DNA of 64,000 bases from contig JAJCTO010000010.1 of assembly GCA_046563655.1 (NCBI GenBank), forward strand, positions 1,116,001 to 1,180,000. The letters are read 5' to 3'. Origin of the DNA: Yuukianura sp. NJ FZ-2021. Its lineage: Eukaryota. The translations under genes and the position numbers were made by a program. A model generated the notes under the pieces. That model made no database searches. It was not told the origin of the DNA and saw only the letters and a list, made by a program, of their open reading frames with translations. Shown here piece after piece: positions 442 through 53,352 of the stretch. Within the stretch, counting starts at the first letter, position 1. Every line of letters starts with the position of its first letter.

Positions 442-1898
442 AGTCAATGGTTCGGGTGACCAAAGCCCCACCCCTTACCCCCTTTTCTTTTGCACAAAAC
501 GTTTTTCTTTTTGCACTTTTGTGCAACTTTTTATATTTGGTTTTGGCCCATGCTCATTGTATGTTTAAGAGTTTAATTAGTTTTTAAAAATAATTTTAAA
601 AAATATTTTTTTCTTTTGCACTTTTGTGCAACTTTTTATATTTGGTTTTTTGTCCATGCTCACTGTATGTTTAAGAGTTTAATTAGTTTTTAAAAATAAT
701 TATAAAAAATATTTTGCGGTTTTGTGGTTTGAGTCCAAGCACCTACCCAAAAATTCCTCTCTTCTTTGCACTTTTATGCAACTTTTTAGTTTTTTTTATA
801 GCTTGGGCTCATTTTAAACTTGGCATTTAATTTGGTTTTTAATTTTGTTTGTGTTTGAAAATGCTACTTTCCCGGAAGCTATTTTTCTCGGAAACATTTT
901 TAAATAGTAAATTCTCAAAAATGTTTCTTTCTATACATCAGGTTCCTTTCTAAACAGCTTTCGAAAATATTTTGAGATGACACAAGACCTAACTTACAGG
1001 TTCGTCTTGCACGTTTGCGGTTTTTTAATTGCCGATTACTTCCGTGTCGCGATCGCTAATTAGAACGCACGAAAAATGTTAACGTAAACGAAAAAGGTAA
1101 GCAATTAAAACTTTTACCTTTCGAGTTGATTGACTCGTGTACAAATTACAAACTTGACCGTAATTGGCAAGCACGAGGGCATTTTCGGGAAGTCTGCCAG
1201 TAGCTTTTCGCCAAGTGAATAACGTTTTACTCACCGCAAAACCATTACGTGACCATTTCAATGCTCCAATTTGACTGGTGAGCGTTTCCGACACAGTACA
1301 CTTACTACTATGCTAGTTATTTATGACCCGAGGAGTTGGTGGTACGCAAGCTTCTGCGACACCCAATGGTCACTTTAGTACTGGTTTTGTCCAAAATCAC
1401 AAATCTCACCGATTCATCTCTGCCGGTAGACTTCAACCTCGCCTGTGATTGGTCGGCGAGTCCTTCAAAACTGCCCTTCCTCAAAAATGGGCGTTGGAAT
1501 CCGTTTATCGCAATTTGATTTGCCAATGACGTTCAAATCGCTGGATTTTAAAAACAAGGGCGTCAACCCGGCTTCTGATTGGTCGACGAGTCGTTGCCCC
1601 AGTGGGCGTGGCCAGTACAATGCTGAAATTTGATTGGTCAAAATCCCAACCCGTATACCAGTTTCAGCCAATTTGCGTCCAACTCGCTTCTGATTGGTCG
1701 ACGAGTCGTTGCCCCAGTGGGCGTGGCCAGTACAATGCTGAAATTTGATTGGTCAAAATCCCAAACGCTATACCAATTTTCAGCCAATGGGAGTGCAGCT
1801 CGCTTCTGATTGGTCCACATGTCGTTCAAAAAATGGCCTAGTCCCACGAATGGGAGTGGCTGGCCGCAAAATGTTTCAAAATCTTCTGCCATTTTTTT
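442..1898 (+). repeat. Left TIR of element 1 (~1457 bp)
   Basis: Near-perfect reverse complement of 4788-6244. The ORF track shows identical mirrored peptides (e.g. 1079..1294- and 5392..5607+). Contains internal ~105-bp and ~115-bp tandem duplications. Confidence 0.95.
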
Positions 1899-2171
1899 TC
1901 TTGAAAGTGCAATAAAATAAACTCTTGAAATTATAAAAAGTGGTCTCGAGACATCATTTGTTGCTGAACCCTCGCGTATATACAGCATGCTGTGTGCGCC
2001 AGAACAACTGATAAACAGATAAACTGGCCAGTTTGGAAAACATTTAATCTTCACTGCTTTACCAAACCCTACTCATTTGTAGTTTGACGAGCAACCGGAA
2101 AGGACGTGCTGGCAAAGCAGGAAGCAAAAGTGACCACGAGGGTGTTTTTGACTGAGAGCGACGCTACTACA

Positions 2172-2729
2172 ATGGATTCTGCGCAAGTTACGCCAAAGAA
2201 TAGCAAGAAAGCGAAAAACGAGGATGGAAATCAGGTAATGGGCTTCCTCTCAAATGAAGAATTGCAAGTTCTCGAATCGGCTAATCGAAGAAACGCGAGA
2301 GTTGAGGATGACGATTCTGACGGACGGTCCAAGTTACCTCGCAAGTTGCAAAAAACGTCGCTGCAACATGGAAGAATGTCGCCATTTGAACAGCATATCC
2401 CACAGCGAATGTCGCCAAGTGACACAGAAACACGCAAAACATTGAAAAAATCACGCCGCAAAGGGTCAAAGTCTATGAAATTGACGCGAAAACGAAAAAA
2501 AGGGGGAGGAAACAAGGAGAGAATCGAATCCCCACGCTATAGTGGAGCAGAATCTGATACAGAATCAACAAAAAAGAACAAAAAACATGAAAAAGTCATC
2601 CAAACTGACGTTGAAGGAAAGACATCAACTAGAAAAACTTCAAAAAGGAAACCAAAAAGGCGACAACCTGGGCTTAAATATGCTACTTCGTATAAGAATG
2701 GTGCAAACGGTACCCTGCTCCTGCGGTGA
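2172..2729 (+). CDS. Lys/Arg-rich low-complexity protein of element 1 (185 aa from the ATG at 2172); possible DNA-binding/core protein
   Basis: The frame 2106..2729 is open and its first ATG is at 2172. Basic clusters: KKSRRKGSK, RKRKKGGG, RKTSKRKPKRR. It occupies the same position (upstream of MCP) as a basic ORF in element 2. Function is inferred only. Confidence 0.55.
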   Translation: MDSAQVTPKNSKKAKNEDGNQVMGFLSNEELQVLESANRRNARVEDDDSDGRSKLPRKLQKTSLQHGRMSPFEQHIPQRMSPSDTETRKTLKKSRRKGSKSMKLTRKRKKGGGNKERIESPRYSGAESDTESTKKNKKHEKVIQTDVEGKTSTRKTSKRKPKRRQPGLKYATSYKNGANGTLLLR

Positions 2730-3180
2730 AACCACTTGCTTCTACACATTTGTCATTAAGTATAGTGGAAATTCAACTATAAATTACCTACTATACTTAC
2801 CTAGACTACTATAAATAGGCATTATTAGCCAGTGTGGCGGCCAGTCGGCATGCGAAAGCCGAGGTGACAACACCTCTCCGCCAAAAAATTGTACAAAATT
2901 GTACGCTTAGTGAGCAGACTTGTCTTCAAACGGTCGCCAATCGGTATACAAAAGCCAGATTGAATACACTTTTCTGCCAAAAATTATCGAAAGTTGCACA
3001 TTTGAATCCAAACGGTCGCCAGTCGGCATCGGCACGTCTTAACGACCACATCTCTCGACGTATTTTGGACAACAATTGGCTCTACATTGTTGAGGTTCAG
3101 CGAGATTTAGCAAATAAAAATACCCCAACAGCAGCCTCACAGACTCGCTTGACCTAAAACCGGGCTAACTAATCGCGGAA

Positions 3181-4490
3181 ATGGAGCTTACCGTTCCAAT
3201 GCACTCGAAGCTGGTTGACACAAATGCCAAATTGGACTTGTTTTCCATGCCAGATACCGAAGTGTCTTGTCTGCTGGACAATTATCTCAAAGTGGAGTCG
3301 TACTATGCCACAAAAGGAAATGAAAATCCGATTCATTTTTCGTTTTGGCAAATGGCGTACCTGGATTTGTCGGATTCGTTCTTCAGATTTGTAGTTTCCA
3401 TTCGAAAAAAAGATGGTTCGGCACTCGGTGACACAGACAAGGTTGCTCCGGAAAATCTGTTCTTTCACACATTTATCGAAGATTTTAAAGTTGTTGTCAA
3501 CAACACGCAAGTCGTGGCCCAGGGGCCAAGGGCATACCCGTACGAGGCTTGGATATTTACTCAACTTCAGCAAGGGGTTGGTTCGAAAAGCAGTACATTG
3601 TCCAGGGAAATTTATTTTCCAGGCAATGTTATGGATAACTTTGACGACACAAACCCAAGCTTCAAAGCTCGACTTGAGCTGGCAAAGAAAAGTAATCAAT
3701 TTGAGATGATTGGACGCCCGATGCTTGGAATTTTCACTTCGCCGAGACTTTTCCCGCCAGGAACACGGTTCAATTTTCAAATTCAACGGACCAACCCAGA
3801 GTTTTGCTTGTGCGGACCATCCTCTACAACTGAATACAAGGTTGAAGTGGAGTGTGCAGACTTTTACGTTCGCCAATATCGTCTAAATGAAAAGTTGACT
3901 ACTCAACTTCGCACCGCATTTGCAAAAAAGAAAATGGCATAGATTCTTTTGACAACGCCGTCAAGTTCTCTACGTATGTACCCGTTGGGGTCACCGAATT
4001 TGAAATTCCAAAAATTATGCCTACGGCAATTCGGCCAAAGCTCCTCTGCATTGCAATTACGACAAGCGAAGTCGTCAACGGTAAACTCGAAAAGTCACCG
4101 TTTAATTTCAAACCACATGGAATCAAAAACATGAAGCTCAAATTCGAAGGAAAGAGAGTTGTTTTTGAGGAAATGAACTTTGAAAACAAAAATTACATGC
4201 TGGCCTACAACAACATGTGCAAGTTAATTTCACATGGAACCGACGGAAACGACATTACATATGACCAATTTGTAAAGGGCAATGCAATTTTTGTGTTTGA
4301 CACTCAAAACTTGCGATCAGACACGTTCAACCCTGGAAAAATTGGACAATTTGCATTGGGCCTTAGTTTTGACGAAAAGACAAAGGAAGAGCTAATGGTT
4401 ATCACCATTGCCGTGGAAGACGTTACACTGGAAATTGGTGAAGGTGGACTAACGCGTTTCGCATCTACGAAAATCATTTTTTTCAAGTAA
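3181..4490 (+). pseudogene. Polinton/Maverick-type major capsid protein (PY, double jelly-roll), ~436 aa, with one frameshift near 3940
   Basis: Motifs LDLFSMPDT, YLDLSDS, APENLFFHTF, YPYEAWI and SPFNFKP match the Maverick MCP pattern (ELDLF..P.T, YIDL, PVNN.LHSLF, YPY.AY, NPFNF). After the TAG at 3940-3942, the -1 frame reads DSFDNAVKFSTYVPVGVTEFEIPKI into ORF 4017..4490, collinear with the uninterrupted region of the element 2 homolog. Confidence 0.85.
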
Positions 4491-4787
4491 TTTTTTTTCA
4501 ACTTAAAATTTCAAAGCGTTCCTTCATATGTATTCCAATTACAATACTTTATACAATTCATAATCTTGTGTAATGTTTGGGATAAGGTTTGCTTGAAAAT
4601 AAAAACCAGCATCATTAAAGCTAAGCAAAACCAATAGTCTAACCTTGGATTTATTTAAAACTAGTTTTTAAGCGAATCGTTGATACGGCGGAGTATTTCT
4701 GAGCCACATTAAGTTGAGTTTTTGTGGACCGGCTGTGGTTTGCATCTCATTTTTTCATGATTCCACGAGTTTGTTGCATTCACTAGC

Positions 4788-6244
4788 AAAAAAATGGCAG
4801 AGGGTTTTGAAACATTTTGCGACCAGCCACTCCCATTCGTGGGACTAGGCCATTTTTTGAACGACATGTGGACCAATCAGAAGCGAGCTGCACTCCCATT
4901 GGCTGAAAATTGGTATAGCGTTTGGGATTTTGACCAATCAAATTTCAGCATTGTACTGGCCACGCCCACTGGGGCAACGACTCGTCGACCAATCAGAAGC
5001 GAGTTGGACGCAAATTGGCTGAAACTGGTATACGGGTTGGGATTTTGACCAATCAAATTTCAGCATTGTACTGGCCACGCCCACTGGGGCAACGACTCGT
5101 CGACCAATCAGAAGCCGGGTTGACGCCCTTGTTTTTAAAATCCAGCGATTTGAACGTCATTGGCAAATCAAATTGCGATAAACGGATTCCAACGCCCATT
5201 TTTGAGGAAGGGCAGTTTTGAAGGACTCGCCGACCAATCACAGGCGAGGTTGAAGTCTACCGGCAGAGATGAATCGGTGAGATTTGTGATTTTGGACAAA
5301 ACCAGTACTAAAGTGACCATTGGGTGTCGCAGAAGCTTGCGTACCACCAACTCCTCGGGTCATAAATAACTAGCATAGTAGTAAGTGTACTGTGTCGGAA
5401 ACGCTCACCAGTCAAATTGGAGCATTGAAATGGTCACGTAATGGTTTTGCGGTGAGTAAAACGTTATTCACTTGGCGAAAAGCTACTGGCAGACTTCCCG
5501 AAAATGCCCTCGTGCTTGCCAATTACGGTCAAGTTTGTAATTTGTACACGAGTCAATCAACTCGAAAGGTAAAAGTTTTAATTGCTTACCTTTTTCGTTT
5601 ACGTTAACATTTTTCGTGCGTTCTAATTAGCGATCGCGACACGGAAGTAATCGGCAATTAAAAAACCGCAAACGTGCAAGACGAACCTGTAAGTTAGGTC
5701 TTGTGTCATCTCAAAATATTTTCGAAAGCTGTTTAGAAAGGAACCTGATGTATAGAAAGAAACATTTTTGAGAATTTACTATTTAAAAATGTTTCCGAGA
5801 AAAATAGCTTCCGGGAAAGTAGCATTTTCAAACACAAACAAAATTAAAAACCAAATTAAATGCCAAGTTTAAAATGAGCCCAAGCTATAAAAAACTAAAA
5901 AGTTGCATAAAAGTGCAAAGAAGAGAGGAATTTTTGGGTAGGTGCTTGGACTCAAACCACAAAACCGCAAAATATTTTTTATAATTATTTTTAAAAACTA
6001 ATTAAACTCTTAAACATACAGTGAGCATGGACAAAAAACCAAATATAAAAAGTTGCACAAAAGTGCAAAAAGAAAAAAAATATTTTTTAAAATTATTTTT
6101 AAAAACTAATTAAACTCTTAAACATACAATGAGCATGGGCCAAAACCAAATATAAAAAGTTGCACAAAAGTGCAAAAAGAAAAACGTTTTGTGCAAAAGA
6201 AAAGGGGGTAAGGGGGGGGGCTTTGGTCACCCGAACCATTGACT
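4788..6244 (-). repeat. Right TIR of element 1 (~1457 bp)
   Basis: Reverse complement of 442-1898, with a few mismatches mostly at the inner edge and in homopolymer runs. Confidence 0.95.
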
Positions 6245-8876
6245 GGTGCCATTCGGGCCCTAAACCAACTTGCTGTGGACGAAGGAGACCACTTTCCCTT
6301 GGCCAGGCAAGCAATAATTGAACGTTTTTATGTAGATGATTATCTAGGTGGTGACTCATCAGTTCCAAAAGTGGTGGAAACTTACCATCAATTGACCAAA
6401 GTACTCGCTCGTGGACAACTGTCAATCACAAAGTGGACTTCAAACTCTCCGGAAGTCCTACAGGAGATTCCTTCACACCTAGTGGAGATCTCCACTCAAT
6501 CACTGGCGGAGGGATCAAGCACAAAGGCATTGGGCGTTCAATGGACTCCAAATTCTGATCTTCTCCATTTCACTGGATTTAGGTTTGACCAAACCTCGGT
6601 AATAACAAAACGTACCATTTTAAGTGACATTGCAAAGCTATTTGATCCACTGGGGCTACTCGCTCCATTCGTCGTGTCGGTAAAAGTTTTCTTTCAGAGT
6701 CTTTGGACCTTGGGAATTGGTTGGGATGATAACCTGCCAGAGGACTTGGTAGAAAGGTGGACCCACCTTGGCTCATCATTGTCATGTCTTAGTGACATTG
6801 CCATTTCACGTTGTGTGATTACACCAAATTACCAACGAATGGAATTACATGGATTTTCGGATGCCTCCGAAAGAGCCTATTGTGCCGTGGTCTACCTCAG
6901 GACATTTAATAACGATCTACCAATATCACGAATTCTCACTTCCAAGACTAAAGTAGCTCCTGTCAAAGCACAGAGCATACCTAGGCTAGAACTTTGTGGT
7001 GCTTTGTTATTATCAAAACTAATTTCTGTTCTTTTGTCTAGTTTGGATCCAAACTGTCATGTCTACTGTTGGACTGACAGTGAAATTACTTTGCGGTGGA
7101 TCTCATCTTCTTCTCGTCCCATGGGTCCCATTCGTGGCCAATCGGGTTTCGCAAATCCAAGAGCTCACACCAGTCGAATCTTGGCATTTCATCCCAGGGA
7201 CACTCAACCCTGCCGACTGCGGAACAAGAGGGATCCCCCTTAGCGATCTCGTCAACAATCAGCTCTGGTGGAACGGACTCGAGTTTCTGTCAGAACTACA
7301 ATTACCTTCGTTCTCCAATTCACAAACACTCTCATCTGAGCATCTGAAGGAAGAACGTAAGGTCAAGGTCCTAACTATTCAAGTGTCTTTTCCCGTATTG
7401 AACAGGTACTCGTCATTTTTGCAACTCCTTCGTGTCATCGGGTCCCTTCTCGGGTTTATGCTGAGAGCTCAGCAGAAGTCGGCACCGATGCCACGCTCAG
7501 TCGAGTTCTACCGAATGGCCACTCGGAAGGTCATTCAACTGTCACAGCAGGAAGACTTCCAACCGGAGATCCAGTCTCTGACTAAAAATGGTAAAGTCAA
7601 TCAGTCGAGTTCGTTGCTCTCTCTTTCCCCATTTTTGGATTCGGATGGATCTCTTCGTGTCGGTGGTCGGCTCCACTTGGCATCGCTCCCAGAAGCTGCC
7701 AAACACCCTCTGATTATTCACGGAAAGTCCTCAGTGACTAAACTACTCGTCCAGCATTACCACCACAAGCATCATCATGCTGGGAATCGTCTTCTGCTCT
7801 CACTTCTCCGCCAGGACTATTGGATTGTCCACGCACGAGATTTGATCAAATCTGTCATCTCTCGCTGCCTCAGATGTAAGCTGTTGAGACAAAAGACGGC
7901 AACACAACTCATGGGTACACTGCCTCAACCAAGAGTCACGATGTCACCTACGTTTCATCACACTGGTTTGGACTACGCTGGTCCATTTACACTCCAATCT
8001 GTCAAAGGACGAGGTCAGAAACAATTTAAAGGCTACTTCTGCATCTTCATTTGCCTCTCCACGAAAGCCGTTCATGTGGAATTCGGAACCGAACTATCCA
8101 CCGAATCCTTCCTCGCGACTTTCAAACGGTTTGTGTCACGTCGGGGTAACCCACTACATTTGTATTCTGATTGTGGTACCAATTTTGTAGGTGCTAATAA
8201 CGAGTTGATGGATTTGGTGAACTCTCACCAGTTCAACTCGGAAGTTTCTTCTTACTTTGCAGAGTCACAAACCCACTGGCATTTCAATCCTCCGTCTGCT
8301 CCTCATCATGGTGGAATCTGGGAGGCAGCAGTACGTTCTGTTAAATTCCATTTGAAGAGGATCATTGGGACCACCACTTTAACGCTTGAGGAATTTGCTA
8401 CAATTCTTTGCCAAGCGGAAGCAGCGCTGAACTCCCGACCTCTTCTACCGATGTCCAGTGACACATCCGATTTAGGTGTGATCACACCTGGCCATTTCCT
8501 CGTCGGCAGACCTCTCCTCGCCGCTCCTCAACCAGATCATGCTGATGTCAAGGTCAATCGCCTCTCACGTTGGCAGTTGCAGGAGAAGCTATTCCAAACG
8601 TTCTGGAAGGTCTGGTCTCTCGAATACCTCACATCCCTTCAACAACGAGTCAAGTGGACCAAGAAAACCAACAATTTGACAATCGGAGATCTCGTGGCCA
8701 TCAAAGATGACAATTTACCCCCTCTAAAGTGGAAACTGGCTCGCGTCATCAACGTTCATCCTGGTCCAGACGGACTAGTCAGAGTCGTCACTCTTCGTAC
8801 GGCCCTCGGGGAACTCCAACGCCCAATCGTCAAAATTGTCCCACTTTTATCTAACGACGAGTTATCTTCAACTTAG
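6245..8876 (+). pseudogene. pol: Bel/Pao pol, remainder (RT YVDD, RNase H, HHCC + DDE integrase), with one +1 frameshift near 7118-7121
   Basis: ORF 6239..7243 reads to ...WTDSEITLRWISSSSRP and continues as WVPFVANRVSQIQE in ORF 7059..8876 (cgt ccc a tgg gtc: one extra base). Integrase motifs: HHKHHHAG..CLRC, DYAGP, SDCGTNF, WEAAVR. Confidence 0.93.
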
Positions 8877-9274: not shown

Positions 9275-9287
9275 AGGGGTGGCGGCA
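9275..9287 (+). promoter_or_regulatory. Polypurine tract of the Bel/Pao element
   Basis: AGGGGTGGCGGCA lies immediately before the TGT start of the putative LTR. Confidence 0.7.
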
Positions 9288-9738: not shown

Positions 9739-11075
9739 CAACGTATTTTACCACAGAGAAATCCCCGCTGCTACAAGTGGCAGCTCTGACTGACATACAA
9801 AGTTAAAGTAGCCACCATAGCCTCCATGAGAAGGTGCAAACAGATACTTTGAAAGCAATCTTGTACTAGAGAACGGTGTGATCAACAAAATGTGTAATGT
9901 CTACTCATTTTCGAAAATTTGTTGAATTAGAAACGGGGTGATGAACTGCTCGGCACTCTTTTCTGTTATCGTCGAAGGAATATTATCGGTACAACGTATT
10001 TTACCACAGAGAAATCCCCGCTGCTACAAGTGGCAGCTCTGACTGACATACAAATTTATAGTAGCCACCATAGCCTCCATGAGAAGGAGCAAACAGATAT
10101 TTTGAAAGCATTCTTGTACAAGAGAACGGTGTGATTAACAAAATGTGTAATTTCTACTCATTTTCGAAAATTTGTTGATTTAGTTGCTTGGTTATGAACT
10201 GCTTGGCACTCTTTTCTGTTATCCTCGAAGGAAGATTATCGGTACAACGTATTTTACCACAGAGAAATCCCCGCTGCTACAAGTGGCAGCTCTGACTGAC
10301 ATACAAAGTTAAAGTAGCCGCCATAGCCTCCATGAGAAGGTGCAAACAGATACTCTGAAAGCAATCTTGTACTAGAGAACGGTGTGATCAACAAAATGTG
10401 TAATGTCTACTCATTTTCCAAAATTTGTTGAATTAGAAACGGGGTTATGAACTGCTCGGCACTCTTTTCTGTTATCGTCGAAGGAAGATTATCGGTACAA
10501 CGTATTTTACCACAGAGAAATCCCCGCTGCTACAAGTGGCAGCTCTGACTGACATACAAAGTTAAAGTAGCCACCATAGCCTCCATGAGAAGGTGCAAAC
10601 AGATACTTTGAAAGCAATCTTGTACTAGAGAACGGTGTGATCAACAAAATGTGTAATGTCTACTCATTTTCGAAAATTTGTTGAATTAGAAACGGGGTTA
10701 TGAACTGCTCGGCACTCTTTTCTGTTATCGTCGAAGGAAGATTATCGGTACAACGTATTTTACCACAGAGAAATCCCCGCTGCTACAAGTGGCAGCTCTG
10801 ACTGACATACAAATTTATAGTAGCCACCATAGCCTCCATGAGAAGGAGCAAACAGATATTTTGAAAGCATTCTTGTACAAGAGAACGGTGTGATTAACAA
10901 AATGTGTAATTTCTACTCATTTTCGAAAATTTGTTAATTTAGTTGCTTGGTTATGAACTGCTTGGCACTCTTTTCTGTTATCCTCGAAGGAAGATTATCG
11001 GTACAACGTATTTTACCACAGAGAAACCCCGCTGCTACAAGTATCAAGTCTGACTGATATCCAAATTTATACGAA

Positions 11076-11387
11076 TCTACGAAATCTGTCCTCATCAGTT
11101 CTGAATCAGAAAATCTAAATCGAGACAATGGAATGAGAATTAACCCTATTTGGAAATCTCTCCTCGTACCTATGGCAAAGAAACTACAAAAACGAAAATG
11201 TCTCACGTCAACAAACACCAATTAAATTTCGCACAAGTTTAGTTCGTAGTTTTTTCCTTAAAAAATTTCTTTAAAAGTTTTTATTCCCTGAAGAAGGACA
11301 TAGATCATTGTCCGAAAGCTCGGATCTTTTTGAATAAAGATTTAAAAGTTAAAACATCAACTGGCGATATTCCGATCTAAAATGCAA
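11076..11387 (+). repeat. 5' pseudo-LTR of the PLE
   Basis: Imperfect direct repeat of 13735-14043; ends at TCTAAAATGCAA, overlapping the ORF start codon. Confidence 0.9.
11285..11324 (+). ncRNA. Minimal type I hammerhead ribozyme motif (5' pLTR)
   Basis: TCC-CTGAAGA-A-GGACA-tagatcat-TGTCC-GAAA-GC-TC-GGA: core boxes CUGANGA and GAAA, 5-bp stem II, short stem I (TCC/GGA), vestigial stem III. Such motifs are established in PLE pLTRs. Confidence 0.8.
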
Positions 11388-40203: not shown

Positions 40204-40405
40204 GACGAATCACTGCTGTTTTCATTTTCATTTTCAAACTATTCATTTTATCTTTGTTTTTATCCTAACTTTTAAACGATAATACTAAGTAAGTTACCTT
40301 TACTCAACATTAATATTTGTTAAACTCTGTATCAATTTTCTGCAAGAAGCGTAACAACCTGCATGCAGGACGCTTCCCGAGATTAAAGAATTGAAAGAAT
40401 TGAAT
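39069..40405 (+). mobile_element. 5'-truncated non-LTR retrotransposon (CR1/L2-group-like LINE), copy 1
   Basis: RT motifs TVDKDILLQKL, VPQGSVLGPLLF, YADD, LLGL. The 3' end is a short GAATT-type repeat tail. TSD TGCTAC at 39063-39068 and 40406-40411. The clade assignment is tentative. Confidence 0.88.
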
Positions 40406-42182
40406 TGCTACAAGCGGCAGCTCTGACTGACATACAAACTTATAGTAGCCACCATAGCCTCCATGAGAAGGAGCAAAGAGATATTTTGAAAGCAATCTTG
40501 TACTAGAGAACGGTGTGATCAACAAAATGTGTAATGTCTACTCATTTTCGAAAATTTGTTGAATTAGAAACGGGGTGATGAACTGCTCAGCACTCTTTTC
40601 TGTTATCGTCGTAGGAAGATTATCGGTACAACGTATTTTACCACAGAGCAATCCCCGCTGCTACAAGTGGCAGCTCTGAATGACATGCAAACTTATAGTA
40701 GCCAACATAGCGTCCATGAGAAGGAGCAAACAGATATTTTGAAAGCAATCTTGTACTAGAGAACGGTGTGATCAACAAAATGTGTAATTTCTACTCATTT
40801 TCGAAAATTTGTTGAATTAGAAACGGGGTGATGAACTGCTCGGCACTCTTTTCTGTTATCGTCGAGGGAAGATTATCGGTTCAACGTATTTTACCACAGA
40901 GAAATCCCCGCTGCTACAAGCGGCAGCTCTGACTGACATACAAACTTATAGTAGCCACCATAGCCTCCATGAGAAGGAGCAAACAGATATTTTGAAAGCA
41001 TTCTAGTACTAGAGAACGGTGTGATCAACAAAATGTGTAATGTCTACTCATTTTCGAAAATTTGTTGAAATAGAAACGGGGTGATGAACTGCTCGGCACT
41101 CTTTTCTGTTATCGTCGAAGGAAGATTATCGGTACAACGTATTTTACCACAGAGAAATCCCCGCTGCTACAAGTGGCAGGTCTGACTGATATCCAAATTT
41201 ATAGTAGCCACCATAGCCTCCATGAGAAGGAGCAAGCAGATACTTTGAAAGCAATCTGGTACTAGAGAACGGTGTGATCAACAAAATGTGTAATGTCTAC
41301 TCATTTTCGAAAATTTGTTGAATTAGAAACGGGGTGATGAACTGCTCAGCACTCTTTTCTGTTATCGTCGTGGGAAGATTATCGGTACAACGTATTTTAC
41401 CACAGATAAATCCCCGCTGCTACAAGTGGCAGCTCTGAATGACATGCAAACTTATAGTAGCCACCATAGCGTCCATGAGAAGGAGCAAACAGATATTTTG
41501 AAAGCAATCTTGTACTAGAGAACGGTGTGATCAACAAAATGTGTAATTTCTACTCATTTTCGAAAATTTGTTGAATTAGAAACGGGGTGATGAACTGCTC
41601 GGCACTCTTTCCTGTTATCGTCGATGCAAGATTATCGGTACAACGTATTTTACCACAGAGAAATCCCCGCTGCTACAAGCGGCAGCTCTGACTGACATAC
41701 AAATTTATAGTAGCCACCATATCCTTCATGAGAAGGAGCAAACAGATATTTTGAAAGCAATCTTGTACTAGACAACGGTGTGATTAACAAAATGTGTAAT
41801 GTCTACTCATTTTCGAAAATTTGTTGAATTAGAAACGGGGTGATGAACTGCTCAGCACTCTTTTCTGTTATCGTCGTAGGAAGATTATCGGTACAACGTA
41901 TTTTACCACAGAGAAATCCCCGCTGCTACAAGTGGCAGCTCTGAATGACATGCAAACTTATAGTAGCCAACATAGCGTCCATGAGAAGGAGCAAACAGAT
42001 ATTTTGAAAGCAATCTTGTACTAGAGAACGGTGTGATCAACAAAATGTGTAATTTCTACTCATTTTCGAAAATTTGTTGAATTAGAAACGGGGTGATGAA
42101 CTGCTCGGCACTCTTTTCTGTTATCGTCGAGGGAAGATTATCGGTTCAACGTATTTTACCACAGAGAAATCCCCGCTGCTAC

Positions 42183-43521
42183 CGTCGACAAAGACATTCT
42201 TCTCCAACAGTTACGGTGGTACAATATTGATTCAGACTGGTTTGAATCATATCTTGGCCATCGTCACCAACAAGTCAAATTAGGGTTACAATTTTCAAAA
42301 ATTTAACCAACAATTTTGTCTGTTCCACAGGGTTCTGTTCTTGGACCTCTTCTGTTCAACATCATGATAAATGATCTGCCACTTGCAGTACGGCACTCAA
42401 TAACGATTCTCTACGCTGATGACACTACACTCATCATTTCTGGACCACCAAGTCTACTTCAAGATCTCTTAAAGAAACTGGAAGATGACATCACTTCAAT
42501 TGTAGAGTGGATGACACAGAACCGTCTCAAAATCAACCCCGATAAAACGCAATTCATCATAATTGGGAAACCGGGTATTTTGAAAAGCATTGGAGTAACC
42601 GAGATCAAAGTTGGAAACTCAACAATCAAAAACTTACCACATATCAAGTTGCTAGGCCTTTTCCTTGACCAGTCCTTGACATGGGTCACACATATCGACG
42701 CAACTGTAAAAAGAGGCAATGCAGCGCTTTGGAACTTACTACCTCTTCAACATTTCCTTGATGCGCACAACCGGAAAATCTTGGTGACATCATACGTAAT
42801 CCCAATTCTCAAATACATGCTTGTCATCTTCAGTCAGTCCCAAAAATCCAAACTAAAGAAAGTGAATAACCATTAAAGAAGATGTGCTAGATTTGTTTTG
42901 AATCTTTCAAAGTGGGATAGCATCACATCACAAATTACCAACCTCGGCTGGTTGCCTCTTAACGCTATGGCAGCATATGAAACGCTAAGCTGCTACCTCA
43001 CCATTCTCAGATCAAGAAACTCATTCTTTGACAGCATGATCGACTCAATTGAAAATGCCACACTTCAACCGAAGTCAACTCGACGCCGCCATTACTTCCC
43101 AATTTGCCCGAATTTTCATAAAAAGTCACTCATTCAAACGGTTGCCCGTATAACAAGTGAATTACCTCCCGAATTAGACCTCAAAACTGTTAAAAGGTTT
43201 AAGCTTTTTGACCATTTCCTGAATACCCATGTAACATCACATTTTAATGATTTTACTATTAATGACGATAATGTTTGCAATCTGTCTTGCATTGATGCTG
43301 TTGTAGGTTATGTTTAGGGACGAATCACTGCTGTTTTCATTTTCATTTTCAAACTATTCATTTTTATCTTTGTTTTTATCCTAACTTTTAAACGGTAATA
43401 CTAAGTAAGTTACTTTAACTCAACATTAATATTTGTTAAACTCTGTATCAATTTTCTGCAAGAAGCGTAACAACCTGCACGCAGGACGCTTCCCGAGATT
43501 AAAGAATTGAAAGAATTGAAT
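42183..43521 (+). mobile_element. 5'-truncated LINE, copy 2 (same truncation point and target site; two premature stops)
   Basis: Same junctions as copy 1, 3114 bp downstream. TSD TGCTAC at 42177-42182 and 43522-43527. TAA stops at ~42304 and ~42874. Confidence 0.88.
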
Positions 43522-46500
43522 TGCTACAAGCGGCAGCTCTGACTGACATACAAACTTATAGTAGCCACCATAGCCTCCATGAGAAGGAGCAAAGAGATAT
43601 TTTGAAAGCAATCTTGTACTAGAGAACGGTGTGATCAACAAAATGTGTAATGTCTACTCATTTTCGAAAATTTGTTGAATTAGAAACGGGGTGATGAACT
43701 GCTCAGCACTCTTTTCTGTTATCGTCGTAGGAAGATTATCGGTACAACGTATTTTACCACAGAGCAATCCCCGCTGCTACAAGTGGCAGCTCTGAATGAC
43801 ATGCAAACTTATAGTAGCCAACATAGCGTCCATGAGAAGGAGCAAACAGATATTTTGAAAGCAATCTTGTACTAGAGAACGGTGTGATCAACAAAATGTG
43901 TAATTTCTACTCATTTTCGAAAATTTGTTGAATTAGAAACGGGGTGATGAACTGCTCGGCACTCTTTTCTGTTATCGTCGAGGGAAGATTATCGGTTCAA
44001 CGTATTTTACCACAGAGAAATCCCCGCTGCTACAAGCGGCAGCTCTGACTGACATACAAACTTATAGTAGCCACCATAGCCTCCATGAGAAGGAGCAAAC
44101 AGATATTTTGAAAGCATTCTAGTACTAGAGAACGGTGTGATCAACAAAATGTGTAATGTCTACTCATTTTCGAAAATTTGTTGAAATAGAAACGGGGTGA
44201 TGAACTGCTCGGCACTCTTTTCTGTTATCGTCGAAGGAAGATTATCGGTACAACGTATTTTACCAAAGAAAAATAACCGCTGCTACAAGTGGCAGCTCTC
44301 ACTGACATACAAACTTATTGTAGCCACCATAGCCTCCATGAGAAGGAGCAAACAGATATTTTGAAAGCATTCTAGTACAAGAGGACGGTGTGATCAACAA
44401 AATGTGTAATTTTTACTCATTTTCGAAAATTTGTTAATTTAGTTGCTTGGTTATGAACTGCTTGGCACTCTTTTCTGTTATCCTCGAAGGAAGATTATCG
44501 GTACAACGTATTTTACCACAGAGAAACCCCGCTGCTACAAGTATCAAGTCTGACTGATATCCAAATTTATAGTAGCCACCATAGCCTCCATGAGAAGGAG
44601 CAAGCAGATACTTTGAAAGCAATCTGGTACTAGAGAACGGTGTGATCAACAAAATGTGTAATGTCTACTCATTTTCGAAAATTTGTTGAATTAGAAACGG
44701 GGTGATGAACTGCTCAGCACTCTTTTCTGTTATCGTCGTAGGAAGATTATCGGTACAACGTATTTTACCACAGATAAATCCCCGCTGCTACAAGTGGCAG
44801 CTCTGAATGACATGCAAACTTATAGTAGCCACCATAGCGTCCATGAGAAGGAGCAAACAGATATTTTGAAAGCAATCTTGTACTAGAGAACGGTGTGATC
44901 AACAAAATGTGTAATTTCTACTCATTTTCGAAAATTTGTTGAATTAGAAACGGGGTGATGAACTGCTCGGCACTCTTTCCTGTTATCGTCGATGCAAGAT
45001 TATCGGTACAACGTATTTTACCACAGAGAAATCCCCGCTGCTACAAGTGGCAGCTCTGAATGACATGCAAACTTATAGTAGCCACCATATCCTTCATGAG
45101 AAGGAGCAAACAGATATTTTGAAAGCAATCTTGTACTAGACAACGGTGTGATTAACAAAATGTGTAATGTCTACTCATTTTCGAAAATTTGTTGAATTAT
45201 AAACGGGGTTATGAACTGCTCGGCACTCTTTCCTGTTATCGTCGATGGAAGATTATCTGTACAACGTATTTTACCACAGAGAAATCCCCGCTGCTACAAG
45301 TGGCAGCTCTGACTGACATACAAATTTATAGTAGCCACCATAGCCTCCGTGAGAAGGAGCAAACAGATATTTTGAAAGCAATCTTGTACAATAGAACGGT
45401 GTGATCAACATAATGTGTAATTTCTACTCATTTTCGAAAATTTGTTGATTTAGAAACGGGGTGATGAACTGCTCGGCACTCTTTTCTGTTATCGTCGAAG
45501 GAAGATTATCGGTACAACGTATTTTACCACAGAGAAATCCCCGCTGCTACAAGTGGCAGCTCTGACTGACATACAAATTTATAGTAGCCACCATAGCCTC
45601 CATGAGAAGGAGCAAACAGATATTTTGAAAGCATTCTTGTACAAGAGAACGGTGTGATTAACAAAATGTGTAATTTCTACTCATTTTCGAAAATTTCTTG
45701 AATTAGAAACGGGGTGATGAACTGCTCGGCACTCTTTTCTGTTATCGTCGAAGGAAGATTATCGGTACAACGTATTTTACCACAGAGAAATCCCCGCTGC
45801 TACAAGTGGCAGGTCTGACTGATATCCAAATTTATAGTAGCCACCATAGCCTCCATGAGAAGGAGCAAGCAGATACTTTGAAAGCAATCCTGTACTAGAG
45901 AACGGTGTGATCAACAAAATGTGTAATTTCTACTCATTTTCGAAAATTTGTTGAATTAGAAACGGGGTTATGAACTGCTCGGCACTCTTTCCTGTTATCG
46001 TCGATGGAAGATTATCTGTACAACGTATTTTACCACAGAGAAATCCCCGCTGCTACAAGTGGCAGCTCTGACTGACATACAAACTTATAGTAGCCACAAT
46101 AGCCTCCACGAGAAGGAGCAAACAGATATTTTGAAAGCAATCTTGTACAATAGAACGGTGTGATCAACATAATGTGTAATTTCTACTCATTTTCGAAAAT
46201 TTGTTGATTTAGAAACGGGGTGATGAACTGCTCGGCACTCTTTTCTGTTATCGTCGAAGGAAGATTATCGGTACAACGTATTTTACCACAGAGAAATCCC
46301 CGCTGCTACAAGTGGCAGCTCTGACTGACATACAAATTTATAGTAGCCACCATAGCCTCCATGAGAAGGAGCAAACAGATATTTTGAAAGCATTCTTGTA
46401 CAAGAGAACGGTGTGATTAACAAAATGTGTAATTTCTACTCATTTTCGAAAATTTGTTGAATTAGAAACGGGGTGATGAACTGCTCGGCACTCTTTTCTG

Positions 46501-47192: not shown

Positions 47193-48339
47193 AGCTAATG
47201 GGAGTGGTAGAGAAACGCCCGGGTTTTCAAAATGGCCGCCGTCCTTATCAGCTATTGCATCTGCATAAGACGTTTTTTGCTCATGCGCAAAAAACGTTTT
47301 TTTGCGCATGACGTCATCACCCACTTCCGCACCCCCTAACCCCCCCCCCACTATATATCCCTCCCCCCTATATCCCCCCCCACGTGACCCCCAAGTCACG
47401 TGCCCCCTCCCCCAAACCACGAAATTGAAATTTTTTTTAAAAAAAATCAATTTTTGACAATTTTTGAAAAAAAAATCAATTTTGAAAAAAAATCATTTTT
47501 TGAAAAAAAATTTTTCCTGAAATTTAGAAATTGGAAAATGTATTGAAACTTGGAAATTGAAATCAAAACTCAAGGTAAATTTCCCCAAATTACCCCAACT
47601 TGAAATGTCAAGGTCACGCCAATTTTTTCAAGGTCATGCGCGCCCTTTGCATTGGCATATGCATTTGTGTCAAGGTCATGCGCGCCCATTTGCAATTTCA
47701 TATAAATTTGTTCAAGGTCATTTCAATTTTTTTTCAAGGTCAAGCGAGCATTTTGAAATTGAAATGTCCCGGGAGCCCTTTTCTGGGTTCCCGGGACCAA
47801 GAAGATCAAGGATGGTGCATGGGCGGTACATTCGGCTGGTCAGAGGATTAGTGGGGTGCCACTCGGCCACTGCCAAAACAAACCGCAAACCACTTCCGGT
47901 TAGCCTGCCAAAGCAAACCGCAAACCACTTCCGGTCAACTTGCCCGCGCATATGCACGTACAAATCCATTTGAATTTTCACTTGGTTTGCAAAACAACAT
48001 TAAGGTCAAAGGTCAAACCGAGTGACGCGTCAGTGCTACACGCGTCACAATAGACTTGTCACTACGCTCGGGGGCGTGGCTAGCCGCCCGACTCTTGAGC
48101 CAATCTACGTTGAGCATTTCAAAAGTGGGCGTGGCTCGAGGAAATGGAGACATTTGATTGGTCGAGACTTGCCGCTACACTCGGGGGGTGTGGCCAACTG
48201 TGGCCAATGTGCGTTTACCATTTCAAAATGGGGCGTGACCTCAGAAAATGGAGACATTTGATTGGTCGACAAGACGCGAGCCCACAATATAGTGATGCCA
48301 TTTCCGGCTTAAACACAGACAAGTCGCCCGGGCGGACTG
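47193..48339 (+). repeat. Left TIR of element 2 (~1147 bp)
   Basis: Reverse-complement similarity to 52228-53352 from the terminus to AAGTCGCCCGGGCGGACTG, with many substitutions and indels. Confidence 0.92.
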
Positions 48340-48841
48340 GTCAGAGCCTCCACTTGGATTACATCTGATGGTAGGATCCGTGAGTTCGATTCAATCTGCC
48401 CCCAAAAAATTTTTATGTTGTTCAAGCGTTTTCGGAACAATACAAACGCAGGCTTGGCGTTTATCACTGGCGTGCCGGAATTACTTACGCTTACAACACT
48501 ATGTTAAATTATATTACGGAAACGTGTTTGCAGAAAAGCGTACGGCATAAACCTGACTTTGAACAACCGTATAAAACATAACCGGCAATTTGTGCCACCA
48601 CCAACAGCTTTGCAGAAAACCAAAAACTGAATACAGTTTTTGTTTTTTTGTTCTTTTTTTCGCTTTTTTTTTGGTTTATATTTTTTTGTTTTTTTTTAGT
48701 TTTTTTTTCGTTTTTTAATTTTATTTATAAAAGACACAATGTTTTTTTAACGAAGAGATTAGTTTATTTTTCAAATTTTAAAAAATTTACAAGAAAAAAG
48801 ACTTGAGACAGGGCTAATGAAGATTAAAAATAAAGTTATTT

Positions 48842-50154
48842 TTAAAAGAATATTTTTTTGTTGGATGCAAGTCCAGTAATTCTATTTCCATCAATTTGTA
48901 AAGTTTCGTCTTCGATTCCGACGATGAGAACCACCAAATCCTTTGTGGTCGGGGTTTCAAAATCAATTTCCAATCCGTATTGTCCAGATCTGGTCGCATT
49001 GTACCCGTCAGTCCACAAATCCTGGACGTCAAATGCAAAGATTGCATTTCCGTTTACAAACTTGTCGTAGGAAATGTCATTTCCTTCAGTCTGACGAGAA
49101 ACCAACTTGCACAAATTGTGATAGGCAAGCATGTAATTTTTGTCTTTGAAAATCATTTCTTGATAGACCAACGGTTTTTGCTCAAATTTTAGCAACATAC
49201 GGGTAACACCGTGGGGTTTAAAGTTGAATGGTGACTTTTCAACTTTTTTCCCTTCGTAAACTTCTAGTTCCAAAATGCCAACTAAAAGAAGTTTTGGGTG
49301 CATAGTACTGTGGTAGGCATTTGTCAAATCAACCGAACTGAGATTTTTCGACACGTATTCTAAACGCATGTGGGCCTGATCGTATGAATAGTTGGCCACT
49401 TTGTTTTTTGCAAACCCTTGCCGGATCTGAGTCACTATTTTTTCGCTGGGATTCACTTGGCGAATATAATACTCGGCCGATTCGACTGTAATTTTGTATT
49501 TGGTGGTAGTGGCCGGTCCTCGTAAGCAAAAGGATGCATCGCTCTTTTTAATTTCAAAATAGAATTGAGTGTTGTGCGGGAATAACTTTTTGGTAGTAAA
49601 TAGGCCGACAAACGGGCGCCCAATCATTTCAAACGTTTGACTATTTTTTGCCAAGTTTAATCGCGCCTTGTAACTCGGGTTTGTGTCGTCGTAGGTGTCC
49701 ATGACATCTCCGGCATAATAACCCACTTTTGACAATGTGCTGCATTTGGTTCCAATGCCGTTAAAGAGTTGAGTGAGCATCCAGGCTTCATACGAGTATG
49801 CTCGGTATCCTTGAGCAACTACTTGGCAATTGTTGACCAAAACTTTGAAGTCGTCAATGAACGCATGAAAAAATAAATTTTCAGGCGCAATTTGGTCTGC
49901 ATCGGTGAGTGGAGTTCCATCACTTTTTCTAATTGAAAACACTAGTTTTAAAAAAGAATCGGACAGGTCCAAGTACAAGTAACTGGCTGTTCCACTCGAA
50001 AGTAGATTGGATTAGGGTCTGTCGATGGTGAAAAGGGTTTCACTACTAGATAATTGCCCAAAATGAACGACACATCCGTGGTTGGCTTTGAAAACAAGTC
50101 AAATTTGGCACTTGTGGTGACCAATTTCGAATTCACTGGCACATTAACCTCCAT
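48842..50154 (-). pseudogene. Polinton/Maverick-type major capsid protein, ~437 aa, with one frameshift near 49980
   Basis: ATG at 50154 (MEVNVPVNSKLVTTSAKFDLFSKPTT...NPIYF, in ORF 49948..50223) continues in another frame as YLDLSDSF... (ORF 48842..49978). Collinear end to end with the element 1 MCP; both end KIFF/KIIFFK. Confidence 0.87.
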
Positions 50155-50325
50155 TTTAGCACAAAAACACGCACGAGATGTTGCTTTGACGGTTTCCAAA
50201 TGACGATTGAGCACTATTTTCAAGGGTTAAGATGTAAATTTCGGGGTAGCACTGAGCACTAGACACGTGTTTACTCGTCGAAATGCAAACGCAGACTGAC
50301 TAATAGTTGTGAAATAGGCTCCCTT

Positions 50326-50697
50326 TTATAGCTTTTTGGGCCAAATTTTGCAATTTTGCAACAATTTTACGCCTTTTTCGCCCACTTTTGGCAGATTTTT
50401 CTGGTTTTCTGCTATTGTCTTTAGAAATTTGCATTTTTCTGCAATTGTTGCAAAGATTTCTGTACTGCTGGACCCATTTTTGGGTAAATTTTGCTTCAAA
50501 TTTGACACTTTTTTGGGCCGCGATCGCTTTCTGACCTTCTTTTTGGGCAATTCCGCGGACATTTTTTGAACAATAGCGGGCGATGCTATTGTTTTTGTGG
50601 CTAAACTTGCATTGTCGCACTTGTTTTCGCCAATTTCTGGCGTCAAACTGCCACTATTGTTGCTAAAATCAGAGTTTTCTGGTTCGTCAACTTCCAT
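50326..50697 (-). CDS. Small Lys-rich protein with NLS-like PKKKVRKR (123 aa from the ATG at 50697)
   Basis: Open frame between the minor and major capsid genes. It shares its ~40-nt upstream leader and first codons with the MCP gene. Function unknown. Confidence 0.5.
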   Translation of the reverse strand: MEVDEPENSDFSNNSGSLTPEIGENKCDNASLATKTIASPAIVQKMSAELPKKKVRKRSRPKKVSNLKQNLPKNGSSSTEIFATIAEKCKFLKTIAENQKNLPKVGEKGVKLLQNCKIWPKKL

Positions 50698-50883
50698 TTT
50701 CACACAAAAAACGCACGAGATGTTGCTTCGACGACGACAAATTCGATACTGACGACGTTTTTAAGAATTTTGTGGTAAATTTTGCACAATTTTGCACTGT
50801 TTTCGTGTTGCTTGGTCGCAAGTCAAACGTCAACTGAACAGATTTTGTCTTTTGTGGCCTGTAATAACTGTTTTTTTGAGGAT

Positions 50884-51954
50884 TTAGGTGGATTTTCTGA
50901 CGTGAAGGATTAGTTGGGTTGAGCTGTGTGCTTCAGGAATTGGTGCAAGGCTTTCGTCCAAAAGTTGAACGTAAATGGAATTAATCATCGACTGCCTTCT
51001 TACCGCAAAATAACGCGGTACATTGACTTGCAAGTCGAAAGGTTTGCCATCCTGGCCGAGTTGGCGGAAGACTCCAATCAAGGGCAGAACTTTTTCTCCA
51101 AACTGGGTATAGTCGTCAAGATCGCACACGACAAGGAGATGTTTTGACGTCACTCCAAGGTCAATTTCGGCCTTGGCTGGACTCGTTTGGCTAAATCCTT
51201 TGAATGCGGCTCCCAGTGGCAGTCCAAATATTTTGTCTAAAAGCGGTGAGAAGGTTGTAATGTAATTGTGTGCAGATTCTCGAGTGTATGCGAGTACAGC
51301 CTCTTCCTCAGAGTACTTGAATGTAATTTGGAATGGAGCCAAGGCGGCGTTCATGGCTTGAATCAGTCCGTCAACCGTCTTTTCTTTTGGTTCTACTACG
51401 GTTGCCAAGTTGACCTTGTCTTGGAAAATGTGGAGCGTCATGTTAATTGTTGGATCAATTGCGTCAAAAATGGCTTCGGTATATTCATGGCCATGCGTCA
51501 CTCCATTTGGAAACGTGTTGGTATCAAACCCAAAGGCTCGGGCATACCCGGCTGTCATGGTAACCACATGGTCCTTTTCGTCGTTGGTAAGTGAAAACAC
51601 CTGGTTTGTGTATGAAATGAGAATTTTTCGGTCCAATTTTTTCAATTCCTTGTTGACATGACTGAAAAACTTCATAATTCCATCCATTTTTAAGATTGTA
51701 ACCGTCACCTCCAGGTGCTCGGTCACATTAATGACATTGTCGCCGTAGCTGTGGCCAAAAATGTTGCGCTGAACCTTTGGCGCAGGAGTATAGCACATTC
51801 CAACAATGGCAACCTCAAGTGGTTGTGTCAAGCCTTCAAGCTCTGGATCCAAATTGGCACGAAACTCGTTTGGTTTATTGCCAGGGTAAAAGCTACTGTT
51901 TAAAGCACTATCCACGATAATGTATTGTGCTGTGGGTTTTGTAATCGTGACCAT
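50884..51954 (-). CDS. Polinton/Maverick-type minor capsid (penton-like, PX) protein, 356 aa, intact
   Basis: N-terminus YIIVDS..S..YPGNKPNEFRANL...LEVAIVGMCY and C-terminus LLVVCDL...FGEKVLPLI...PRYFAV...INSIYVQLLDE...LILHVRK match the Maverick penton pattern (.LPSNSS..FP.N....F...L...WEV.L.E..Y / YVYCD....VGD...PLL...P.Y.PV......I.I.I.D......LHFR) around a variable middle. Confidence 0.8.
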   Translation of the reverse strand: MVTITKPTAQYIIVDSALNSSFYPGNKPNEFRANLDPELEGLTQPLEVAIVGMCYTPAPKVQRNIFGHSYGDNVINVTEHLEVTVTILKMDGIMKFFSHVNKELKKLDRKILISYTNQVFSLTNDEKDHVVTMTAGYARAFGFDTNTFPNGVTHGHEYTEAIFDAIDPTINMTLHIFQDKVNLATVVEPKEKTVDGLIQAMNAALAPFQITFKYSEEEAVLAYTRESAHNYITTFSPLLDKIFGLPLGAAFKGFSQTSPAKAEIDLGVTSKHLLVVCDLDDYTQFGEKVLPLIGVFRQLGQDGKPFDLQVNVPRYFAVRRQSMINSIYVQLLDESLAPIPEAHSSTQLILHVRKST

Positions 51955-52077
51955 TGTGCACGTAGATGCAAACTCGGTAAAAAGTGTAAAAAAAAAGAAA
52001 GAGTAAACTGAAACACTTTCACTTAAACACTTGCTTCAAGTAGAAGGTGATGTAGACCTCACGGAAGGTAGTGAAAC

Positions 52078-52132
52078 ACTGAGCCGTTTGCGGCAACTTT
52101 ACGGTCTTATATAGGCGCAACCGATGACGTCA
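52078..52132 (-). promoter_or_regulatory. Putative Pol II core promoter of the minor capsid gene (CRE + TATA + Inr)
   Basis: On the minus strand: TGACGTCA (52132-52125), TATATAA (52113-52107) and TCAGT (52082-52078) ~31 nt after the TATA start; the ATG is at 51954. Confidence 0.55.
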
Positions 52133-52227
52133 CCGTAAAAAAATGCAGGCGTCGCGTGGCAAGGCGTGCACATGAGGCAGTCGCAATCTCACCTCCGACA
52201 CGTAAACGAGACCGTTTTGTGTATAAG

Positions 52228-53352
52228 CAGTCCGCCCGGGCGACTTGTCTGTGTTTAAGCAGTAAATGGCAATACTATATTGTGGGCTCGCGTCTTGTCG
52301 ACCAACCAAATGTCTCCATTTTCTGAGGTCACGCCCTATTTTGAAATGGTAAACGCACATTGGCCACAGTTGGCCACACCCCCGAGTGTAGCGGCAAGTC
52401 TCGACCAATCAAATTGCTCCACTTCCTCGAGCCACGCCCACTTTTGAAATGCTCAAGGCTGATTGGCTCAAGAGTCGGTCGACTAGCCACGCCCCCGAGC
52501 TTTCGCCCCCGACAATTCCATTTGGCCTTTGACCTTGATGTTTTTGGCAAACGCAAGTGAAAGTTCAAATGGAATTGTACGTGCATGTGCACGGGCAGGG
52601 TGACCGGAAGTGGTTTGCGGTTTCTTTTGGCAGGCTAACCGGAAGTGGTTTGCGGTTTGTTTTGGCAGTGCCGAGTGGCACCCCACTAATCCTATGACCA
52701 GCCGAATGTACCGCCCATGCACCATACTTGATCCCCTTGGTCCCGGGAACCCAGAAAAGGGCTCCCGGGACTTGACAATTTCAAAATGCTCGCTTGACCT
52801 TGAAAAAAAAAATTGAAATGACCTTGAACAAATTTATATGAAATTGCAAATGGGCGCGCATGACCTTAAACAAATGCATATGCCAATGCAAAGGGCGCGC
52901 ATGAAAAAAAATGGCGTGACCTTGAAAAATTCGGCGTGACCTTGAAATTTGGGGTTGGGGTAATCTGGGGTAATTTACTTAAAATTTTTGGCAGCCATTT
53001 TAATTTCCAAGTTTCAAAAAATTTTCCAATTTCCAAATTTCAGAAATTTTTTTTTTCAAAAATTGTTTTTTTTTCAAAAAATGTTTTTTTAGATAATTTT
53101 TTAAAAATAAGTTTCAATTTGTGGTTTGGGGAGGGGGGGCACGTGACTCGGGGGTCACGTGGGGGGGGGGGGTGGATATAGGGGGGAGGGATATATAGTG
53201 GGGGGTATGGGGGGTGCGGAAGTGGGGGGGTGATGACGTCATATGCAAAACGTTTCTGCGCATGAGCAAAAACGTTTTGTGCAGATGCAATAGCTGATAA
53301 GGACGGCGGCCATTTTGAAAAAAGTCCTTTTCCCTTGCCACTGCCATTAGCT
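52228..53352 (-). repeat. Right TIR of element 2 (~1125 bp)
   Basis: Imperfect reverse complement of 47193-48339; the mirrored ORF-track peptides are similar but not identical. Confidence 0.92.

Follow-up and report, generated by a model that had tools for sequence, protein, structure and literature searches.

Introduction

Mavericks, or Polintons, are usually treated either as complete virus-like elements of 15–20 kb or as decayed fossils. Here we describe two much smaller elements with related capsid genes, found in a 64,000-nucleotide stretch of the genome of Yuukianura sp. NJ FZ-2021 (assembly GCA_046563655.1, contig JAJCTO010000010.1, positions 1,116,001 to 1,180,000 of the forward strand), the whole of which is called the window hereafter. 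Both elements retain a structural module, composed of a gene for a basic protein and a gene for the major capsid protein (MCP), plus a penton gene in the second one, between long terminal inverted repeats (TIRs). We consider it probable that they are non-autonomous Maverick derivatives that propagate as a lineage, keep the capsid module only and are copied and integrated by a helper.

In the portions of the literature drawn on here, intact vertebrate Mavericks are described as elements of 12.7–24.6 kb (12,723–24,620 bp) with TIRs of 46–1447 bp, 6-bp target duplications and end motifs of the AGT type (PMC8097293). The same source presents their genome size as constrained, their genes as organized in two modules and 96% of their copies as degraded, and it states that Maverick virions had not been observed. 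By definition, all Polintons encode a polymerase and an integrase (PMC5499653), and the elements of the window are therefore to be regarded, on that definition, as derivatives and not as autonomous Mavericks. Among the repeats already named, the Repbase entry Polinton-N1A_NV of Nematostella is called non-autonomous and has an MCP, which was placed near the PgVV group and outside the main Maverick MCP lineage (PMC11296320).

Two short elements with long inverted ends

The first of the two, element 1 (442..6244, 5803 bp), resides in a BEL/Pao retrotransposon that extends from position 1 to approximately 9 kb of the window (parts 1–441 and 6251–8876). It starts with AGTCAATGG and ends with CCATTGACT. 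Its TIRs (442..1916, forward strand, and 4770..6244, reverse strand) are 1475 bp long and make up 51% of its length; in a global alignment they are 99% alike (1462 matches, 11 mismatches and 2 gap events), and such near-identical ends indicate that the element is young. Tandem repeats of 106 bp (two copies) and 115 bp (2.2 copies) occur inside the left one. A perfect 6-bp target duplication, GGTGCC, bounds the element (left copy 436..441, right copy 6245..6250). When the element and one copy of GGTGCC were deleted in silico, the BEL/Pao reading frame was restored and the flanks aligned unbroken over the junction with five out of five BEL/Pao pol proteins tried. From the duplication and the restored alignment together it follows that element 1 is precisely integrated, with a 6-bp duplication.

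Element 2 (47193..53352, 6160 bp) starts with AGCTAATGG and ends with CCATTAGCT. Its TIRs of approximately 1.1 kb (left 47193..48339, forward strand; right 52228..53352, reverse strand) represent 37% of its length and are about 90% alike, with 976 matches, 114 mismatches and 14 gap events. All the genes of each element lie on one strand, and the interiors are compact, with 230–500 bp from the MCP stop codon to the inner edge of the TIR. Between the two elements, the TIRs show a single 35-bp match at 83% and differ beyond the motif AGnnAATGG.

An earlier note on this DNA, made from the letters alone, had proposed two elements of similar size with AG...CT ends, long TIRs that barely align with each other, collinear yet diverged MCPs and genes of virion type only. 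These descriptions were upheld by measurement. Three qualifications have to be added to the overall picture: element 2 has no target duplication, each MCP gene carries one frameshift, and the basic open reading frames (ORFs) are not demonstrably related to each other.

Capsid genes recognized by their predicted folds

The MCP gene of element 1 (3181..4490, forward strand) runs in two frames, with a frameshift near 3940–3945, and is collinear with intact relatives of 437 amino acids. In the MCP gene of element 2 (48842..50154, reverse strand) the frameshift lies near 49985–49995, and the 389 amino acids downstream of it are open. Between the two proteins, identity amounts to 61% over 194 residues and to 47% over 175 residues. 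Sequence searches among 5.8 billion proteins returned 6 and then 16 relatives, nearly all of them of about 430–445 amino acids. The closest proteins are P0006–P0009, P0012 and P0015, and one relative, from a spider, is annotated as “uncharacterized protein F54H12.2-like”. P0012 is interrupted centrally by some 110 residues of low-complexity, internally repeated sequence. With the MCP alignment as query, neither IMG/VR nor the prokaryote genomes scanned yielded a relative.

No Pfam match at threshold was obtained with the ORFs of the MCP, the penton or the basic proteins, and searches of PDB sequence profiles were likewise unproductive. Recognition by sequence having failed, folds were needed. 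The protein atlas neighbours of the MCP include a “double jelly roll-like domain” cluster (PF21738 in 65% of one cluster's members); PF21738 was matched in Pfam by no member of alignment A2. For the element 2 MCP, the open stretch of 389 amino acids (48842–50011) was modelled with AlphaFold from a 21-row alignment, with a predicted local distance difference test score (pLDDT) of 84.9 and a predicted template modelling score (pTM) of 0.85. Foldseek ranked the Sputnik MCP first for this model (E 6.7e-14, template modelling [TM] score 0.67), followed by the MCPs of Singapore grouper iridovirus, PBCV-1 and mavirus (E about 1e-13). By its modelled fold, the protein is a double-jelly-roll capsid protein. 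Among viral models (BFVD), the top match (E 2e-20, with 20% identity) belongs to Cotesia sesamiae Mombasa bracovirus and is itself uncharacterised; bracovirus genomes carry Maverick insertions.

Element 2 also has an intact gene of 356 amino acids for the minor capsid protein, or penton (50884..51954, reverse strand); a search of 1.84 billion cluster representatives gave 61 relatives of this protein at E <= 0.001. Its model (pLDDT 93.6) matches the mavirus penton (E 2.9e-9) and then the penton bases of PBCV-1, Sputnik and adenovirus, all with low TM scores of 0.3–0.4. In hhalign, the penton profile aligned with a probability of 99.5% to the ORF in the penton position of a complete Maverick, the metagenome locus L004 described below. 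The predicted fold is that of a single-jelly-roll penton, and with both proteins modelled in this way the virion genes suspected in the earlier note were borne out. By their kinship to counterparts in complete Mavericks, the capsid genes of the window belong to the Maverick/Polinton families. With respect to the 275-amino-acid penton-position protein of L004, the element 2 protein has some 90 additional residues inserted (residues ~160–250).

Directly upstream of the MCP gene, all the mini-elements, including the third one introduced below, have an ORF rich in lysine and arginine, with isoelectric points (pI) of 9.7–10.5. In element 1 (2172..2729, forward strand) it encodes 185 amino acids from the first ATG, with a pI of 10.5 and 26% lysine plus arginine; in element 2 (50326..50697, reverse strand) it encodes 123 amino acids with a pI of 9.7. 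No relatives were found for the first, which gave one sub-threshold Pfam match (E 0.6) and nothing usable in the protein atlas. Sequence comparison detected no similarity among the basic ORFs of the mini-elements, which have only their composition in common, nor are they like the “GGGLG plus basic tail” ORF that stands upstream of the MCP gene in complete Mavericks. Going by position and composition, one might guess at a DNA-condensing core protein. In element 2, a 46-nucleotide stretch with the start codon (M-E-V) is doubled at 89% identity (50146–50191 and 50689–50733), so that one copy precedes the MCP gene and the other the basic ORF.

Genes of complete Mavericks missing from the elements

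One metagenome scan provided ten loci for comparison. In three of them, L004–L006, a distant MCP relative (24–26% identity) precedes a protease-sized ORF, an rve integrase and two ORFs in the penton and ATPase positions. Pfam matches to adenain (weak and sub-threshold) and to the Pox_A32 ATPase were obtained in L004 only. Polymerase-type ORFs are present in L008 and L009, with a DNA_pol_B_2 (pPolB) match just below the Pfam cut-off in L009. In the complete Mavericks sampled, the protease gene directly follows the MCP gene. As a separate observation, the polymerase-type ORFs of L008 (359–4084) and L009 (2614–3372) begin with a C2H2-like zinc-finger motif; Endonuclease VII (PF02945) was matched in L009 with E 1.8e-5 and 25.0 bits (cut-off 23.6), and in L008 with 21.3 bits, below the cut-off.

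Neither tblastn nor Pfam found a polymerase, an integrase, a packaging ATPase or a protease in either element. The tblastn queries were the ORFs of at least 100 amino acids of the ten metagenome loci, 47 of which come from six complete-Maverick loci, and when run against the whole window they matched the MCP and penton genes and nothing else. The polymerase ORFs of L008 and L009 had no match anywhere in the window, and the rve ORFs of L004 and L006 had none in either element. Pfam was applied to 27 of the 56 further element ORFs of at least 70 amino acids; the set excluded mirror ORFs of the second repeat arm, capsid ORFs and a number of short ORFs that overlap the capsid genes in another frame or on the other strand. 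At E <= 0.001 these 27 gave no match, a single low-complexity match being sub-threshold. An Rfam scan of the whole window yielded zero RNA families. Taken together, the tblastn, Pfam and Rfam outcomes make the term “capsid-only” of the earlier note correct as far as these tools see.

A clean structural module with complete termini of its own could also be one half of a bipartite Maverick-like virus. The window element would then be the structural segment, while a second segment, bounded by TIRs with matching termini, would carry the genes for replication and integration, and the two gene modules described for vertebrate Mavericks (PMC8097293) would fit such a division. However, no partner segment was found in the window or among the metagenome loci, elements 1 and 2 have unlike termini past their short common motif, and the packaging ATPase and protease, both part of the morphogenetic module, are missing as well. 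We consider a bipartite virus very improbable.

A third mini-element and the phylogeny of the major capsid proteins

The reduced design recurs in a metagenome contig of 3944 bp, L001. Its inverted repeats (3–454 and 3365–3944) are 84–94% complementary and enclose a basic ORF of 132 amino acids (pI 10.5) and an intact MCP ORF of 439 codons, and nothing else. When compared with L001, the 47 ORFs from complete Mavericks matched through their MCP ORFs solely. No penton was found in L001 or in element 1. The L001 MCP is about 50% diverged, the three mini-element MCPs being 47–60% identical, and elements 1 and 2 and L001 show no common non-coding similarity.

A maximum-likelihood tree was built from 28 MCP rows, in which element 1 entered as two partial rows. 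The MCPs of elements 1 and 2 are sisters (support 100/98), and both belong to an 11-row clade (support 100/100) together with L001, P0006–P0009, P0012 and L003 (identical to P0019). The five MCPs of complete Mavericks all fall in the other clade, of 16 rows. Where the context of the gene is known, three out of three members of the first clade are mini-elements and five out of five members of the second are complete elements, so that the phylogenetic check proposed in the earlier note set the three mini-elements apart from the five complete Mavericks. This split amounts to a single state change on the tree and is therefore suggestive, no more. The same note had argued from two long-separated lineages with a shared design. 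The design does recur in L001, but the window MCPs are mutual nearest relatives and hence go back to one origin, which leaves L001 as the independent comparison.

Between elements 1 and 2, the proportion of differences in the MCP gene is 0.24–0.36 at nonsynonymous sites (pN) and 0.67–0.85 at synonymous sites (pS). Synonymous sites are thus saturated, whereas pN is lower, which indicates purifying selection on the MCP through the greater part of its divergence. The earlier note had proposed a dN/dS comparison across copies; the signal of selection seen between the elements does not indicate which kind of element was under selection, and it may have acted in autonomous ancestors.

Such conservation across the clade would fit the proposal, in outline that of the earlier note, that the elements are satellites with a capsid of their own, for which a helper Maverick would give replication, integration, ATPase and protease, the particles being built from the satellite's MCP and penton. 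In the note's version, they might redirect packaging or interfere with the helper. By analogy with capsid-forming phage satellites, these particles might be small enough to hold 6 kb but not the helper genome. The intact MCP of L001 and the intact penton of element 2 are consistent with this proposal, as are an MCP clade with at most 28% identity to the helper-type MCPs of complete Mavericks and a length of 6 kb, far under the constrained size range described for vertebrate Mavericks (PMC8097293). On the other side, both window MCPs are frameshifted, a penton was not found in two of the three elements, and the selection on the MCP perhaps dates from autonomous ancestors. We regard satellites with their own capsid as rather unlikely, and the broader proposition, a long-lived capsid-only lineage of approximately 4–6 kb that parasitises complete Mavericks in arthropod-like hosts and forms its own, possibly smaller, particles, as doubtful to the same degree.

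A propagating lineage or dead remnants

The helper-dependent lineage proposed at the outset would work as follows. A complete Maverick elsewhere in the genome would provide the polymerase, the terminal protein and the integrase in trans, and the termini of the mini-elements would act as protein-primed replication origins and as integrase substrates. In this way the mini form itself would propagate as a lineage. Its long inverted ends may have arisen by the loss of one end followed by the copying of the other.

The serious rival is that the mini-elements are dead remnants. Full-length Mavericks would have suffered internal deletions, either independently and in place or once, with a mini form that never propagated, and the common layout would simply reflect genes that were neighbours in the parent. 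In line with this, 96% of the vertebrate Maverick copies are described as degraded (PMC8097293), and a contiguous block of penton, minor protein and MCP genes could survive deletions. The frameshifts in both window MCP genes and the lack of a duplication around element 2 also suit dead copies. The remnant explanation, however, has to accommodate a layout and a clade common to three elements whose MCPs have diverged so far, the intact MCP ORF of L001, and compact interiors with the genes on one strand and the MCP stop close to the repeat edge. In addition, no fragment of other Maverick genes was found in any of the three elements. Since the protease gene comes right after the MCP gene in the complete Mavericks sampled, each element would have required no fewer than two clean deletions. 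We judge independent dead remnants to be unlikely, although they are the alternative to be taken most seriously.

Several observations weigh against a propagating lineage. The duplication around element 1 would look the same if a full-length insertion had been deleted later. Each window MCP gene has exactly one frameshift and is otherwise free of in-frame stops, and so, barring assembly error, probably no full-length capsid protein is made from these copies. A penton in one element and not in the other two fits ongoing erosion too. The basic ORFs may be non-homologous or may not be real genes. The association between clade and mini form comes from three elements and, being suggestive, is not statistically strong, and the evidence on copies and helpers is confined to the window. 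Finally, the flanks of element 2 (TGTAAT and GAGGTC) are not a target duplication, and the element stands exactly at the junction between a 253-bp satellite on its left and a 183-bp satellite on its right; the absent duplication and the satellite junction could be a misassembly.

The decay of element 2 is also uneven. Whereas 14 gap events separate its arms, its 2.4 kb of genes contain a single frameshift. If the arms are assumed to have been identical at insertion, each has changed by about 5%, and at that level of decay the penton gene would stay free of stop codons with a probability of 0.13, and the 389-codon part of the MCP gene with one of 0.053. As the genes are better kept than the ends, the two ends either differed from the start or stem from two copies. 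Element 2 may thus be a recombinant of two copies seated in different satellite arrays, misassembly being the alternative; recombination would explain at once the absent duplication, the differing flanks and the unequal decay.

A conserved and mobile capsid-only mini form, if true, would mean that Mavericks have dependent parasites or segments of their own, and the mini forms would offer a simple test of the use of Maverick capsid genes. If they are mere remnants, the finding is an ordinary one.

Genomic setting

The BEL/Pao element that hosts element 1 has a pol ORF at 7023–8876, whose relatives are annotated with Pao-peptidase, integrase and DUF5641. The nearest named relatives are springtail proteins (45–49% identity), followed by proteins of ants and spiders, a pattern that points towards an arthropod-like host. 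Most of the remaining window is satellite DNA. The 253-bp array (9887–47192) comprises about 130 copies, and the 183-bp array (53353–64000) covers at least 10.6 kb up to the end of the window. The two arrays have no similarity to each other and neither resembles element 2. The idea that these flanking satellites are repeats of the element itself was therefore ruled out, element 2 being unmatched in the arrays and the arrays unmatched in each other.

The 253-bp array is interrupted in places. One interruption of 3.2 kb (10899–14135) contains an ORF of 840 amino acids (11346–13865) flanked by direct repeats of approximately 310 bp that are 91% alike (11076–11387 and 13735–14043), and it is probably another retroelement. 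Two further interruptions of 1.6 kb (38928–40524 and 42042–43640) are 98.6% identical to each other, and each has a truncated ORF similar to reverse transcriptases; the pair is either one insertion that was duplicated or a higher-order repeat.

Comparison with known systems

With autonomous Mavericks or Polintons (polintoviruses, adintoviruses), the elements described here have in common the MCP and penton families, the TIRs, the AG...CT ends and the 6-bp duplication. The TIRs and AG...CT ends occur in both elements and the duplication in element 1 only. Unlike those autonomous elements, they have no detected protein-primed polymerase, rve integrase, FtsK/A32-type packaging ATPase or adenain-like protease in the searches above, and their lengths of 5803 and 6160 bp compare with 12.7–24.6 kb for the vertebrate Mavericks described (PMC8097293). 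Their TIRs occupy 37–51% of the element, and their MCP clade is separate from that of the complete elements sampled. Polinton-like viruses are described with an MCP, a penton and a packaging ATPase in genomes of 14–40 kb (PMC12220804), whereas the window elements are about 6 kb long and an ATPase was not found in them.

No description of capsid-only mini-Mavericks was found in the portions of full-text literature covered, which included PMC4028283, PMC3014272, PMC6431247, PMC11296320, PMC5499653 and two preprints; Repbase and supplements (e.g., Table S1 of PMC4028283) lay outside that search and may bear on novelty. The nearest published item is Polinton-N1A_NV, and the likeness consists, by description only, of the non-autonomous label and the MCP (PMC11296320). 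Considered as a non-autonomous DNA transposon, element 1 has the termini and the duplication, and the enzymes for mobility were not found in it.

Other small genetic elements have comparable habits. Transpovirons and the defective genomes of adenovirus-type, protein-primed viruses are small, linear-type molecules with long inverted ends that need a larger relative for their replication. To our knowledge, transpovirons carry no capsid genes, and we know of no defective viral genomes that form long-lived integrated lineages. The capsid-forming phage satellites (cf-PICIs), in turn, are small helper-dependent elements that keep capsid genes of their own. The likeness to cf-PICIs and other phage satellites is conceptual: the host domain differs, the proteins are unrelated, and the elements of the window are known from their genes. 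If a mini-Maverick lineage with its own particles were nevertheless real, it would be a eukaryotic counterpart of the capsid-forming phage satellites.

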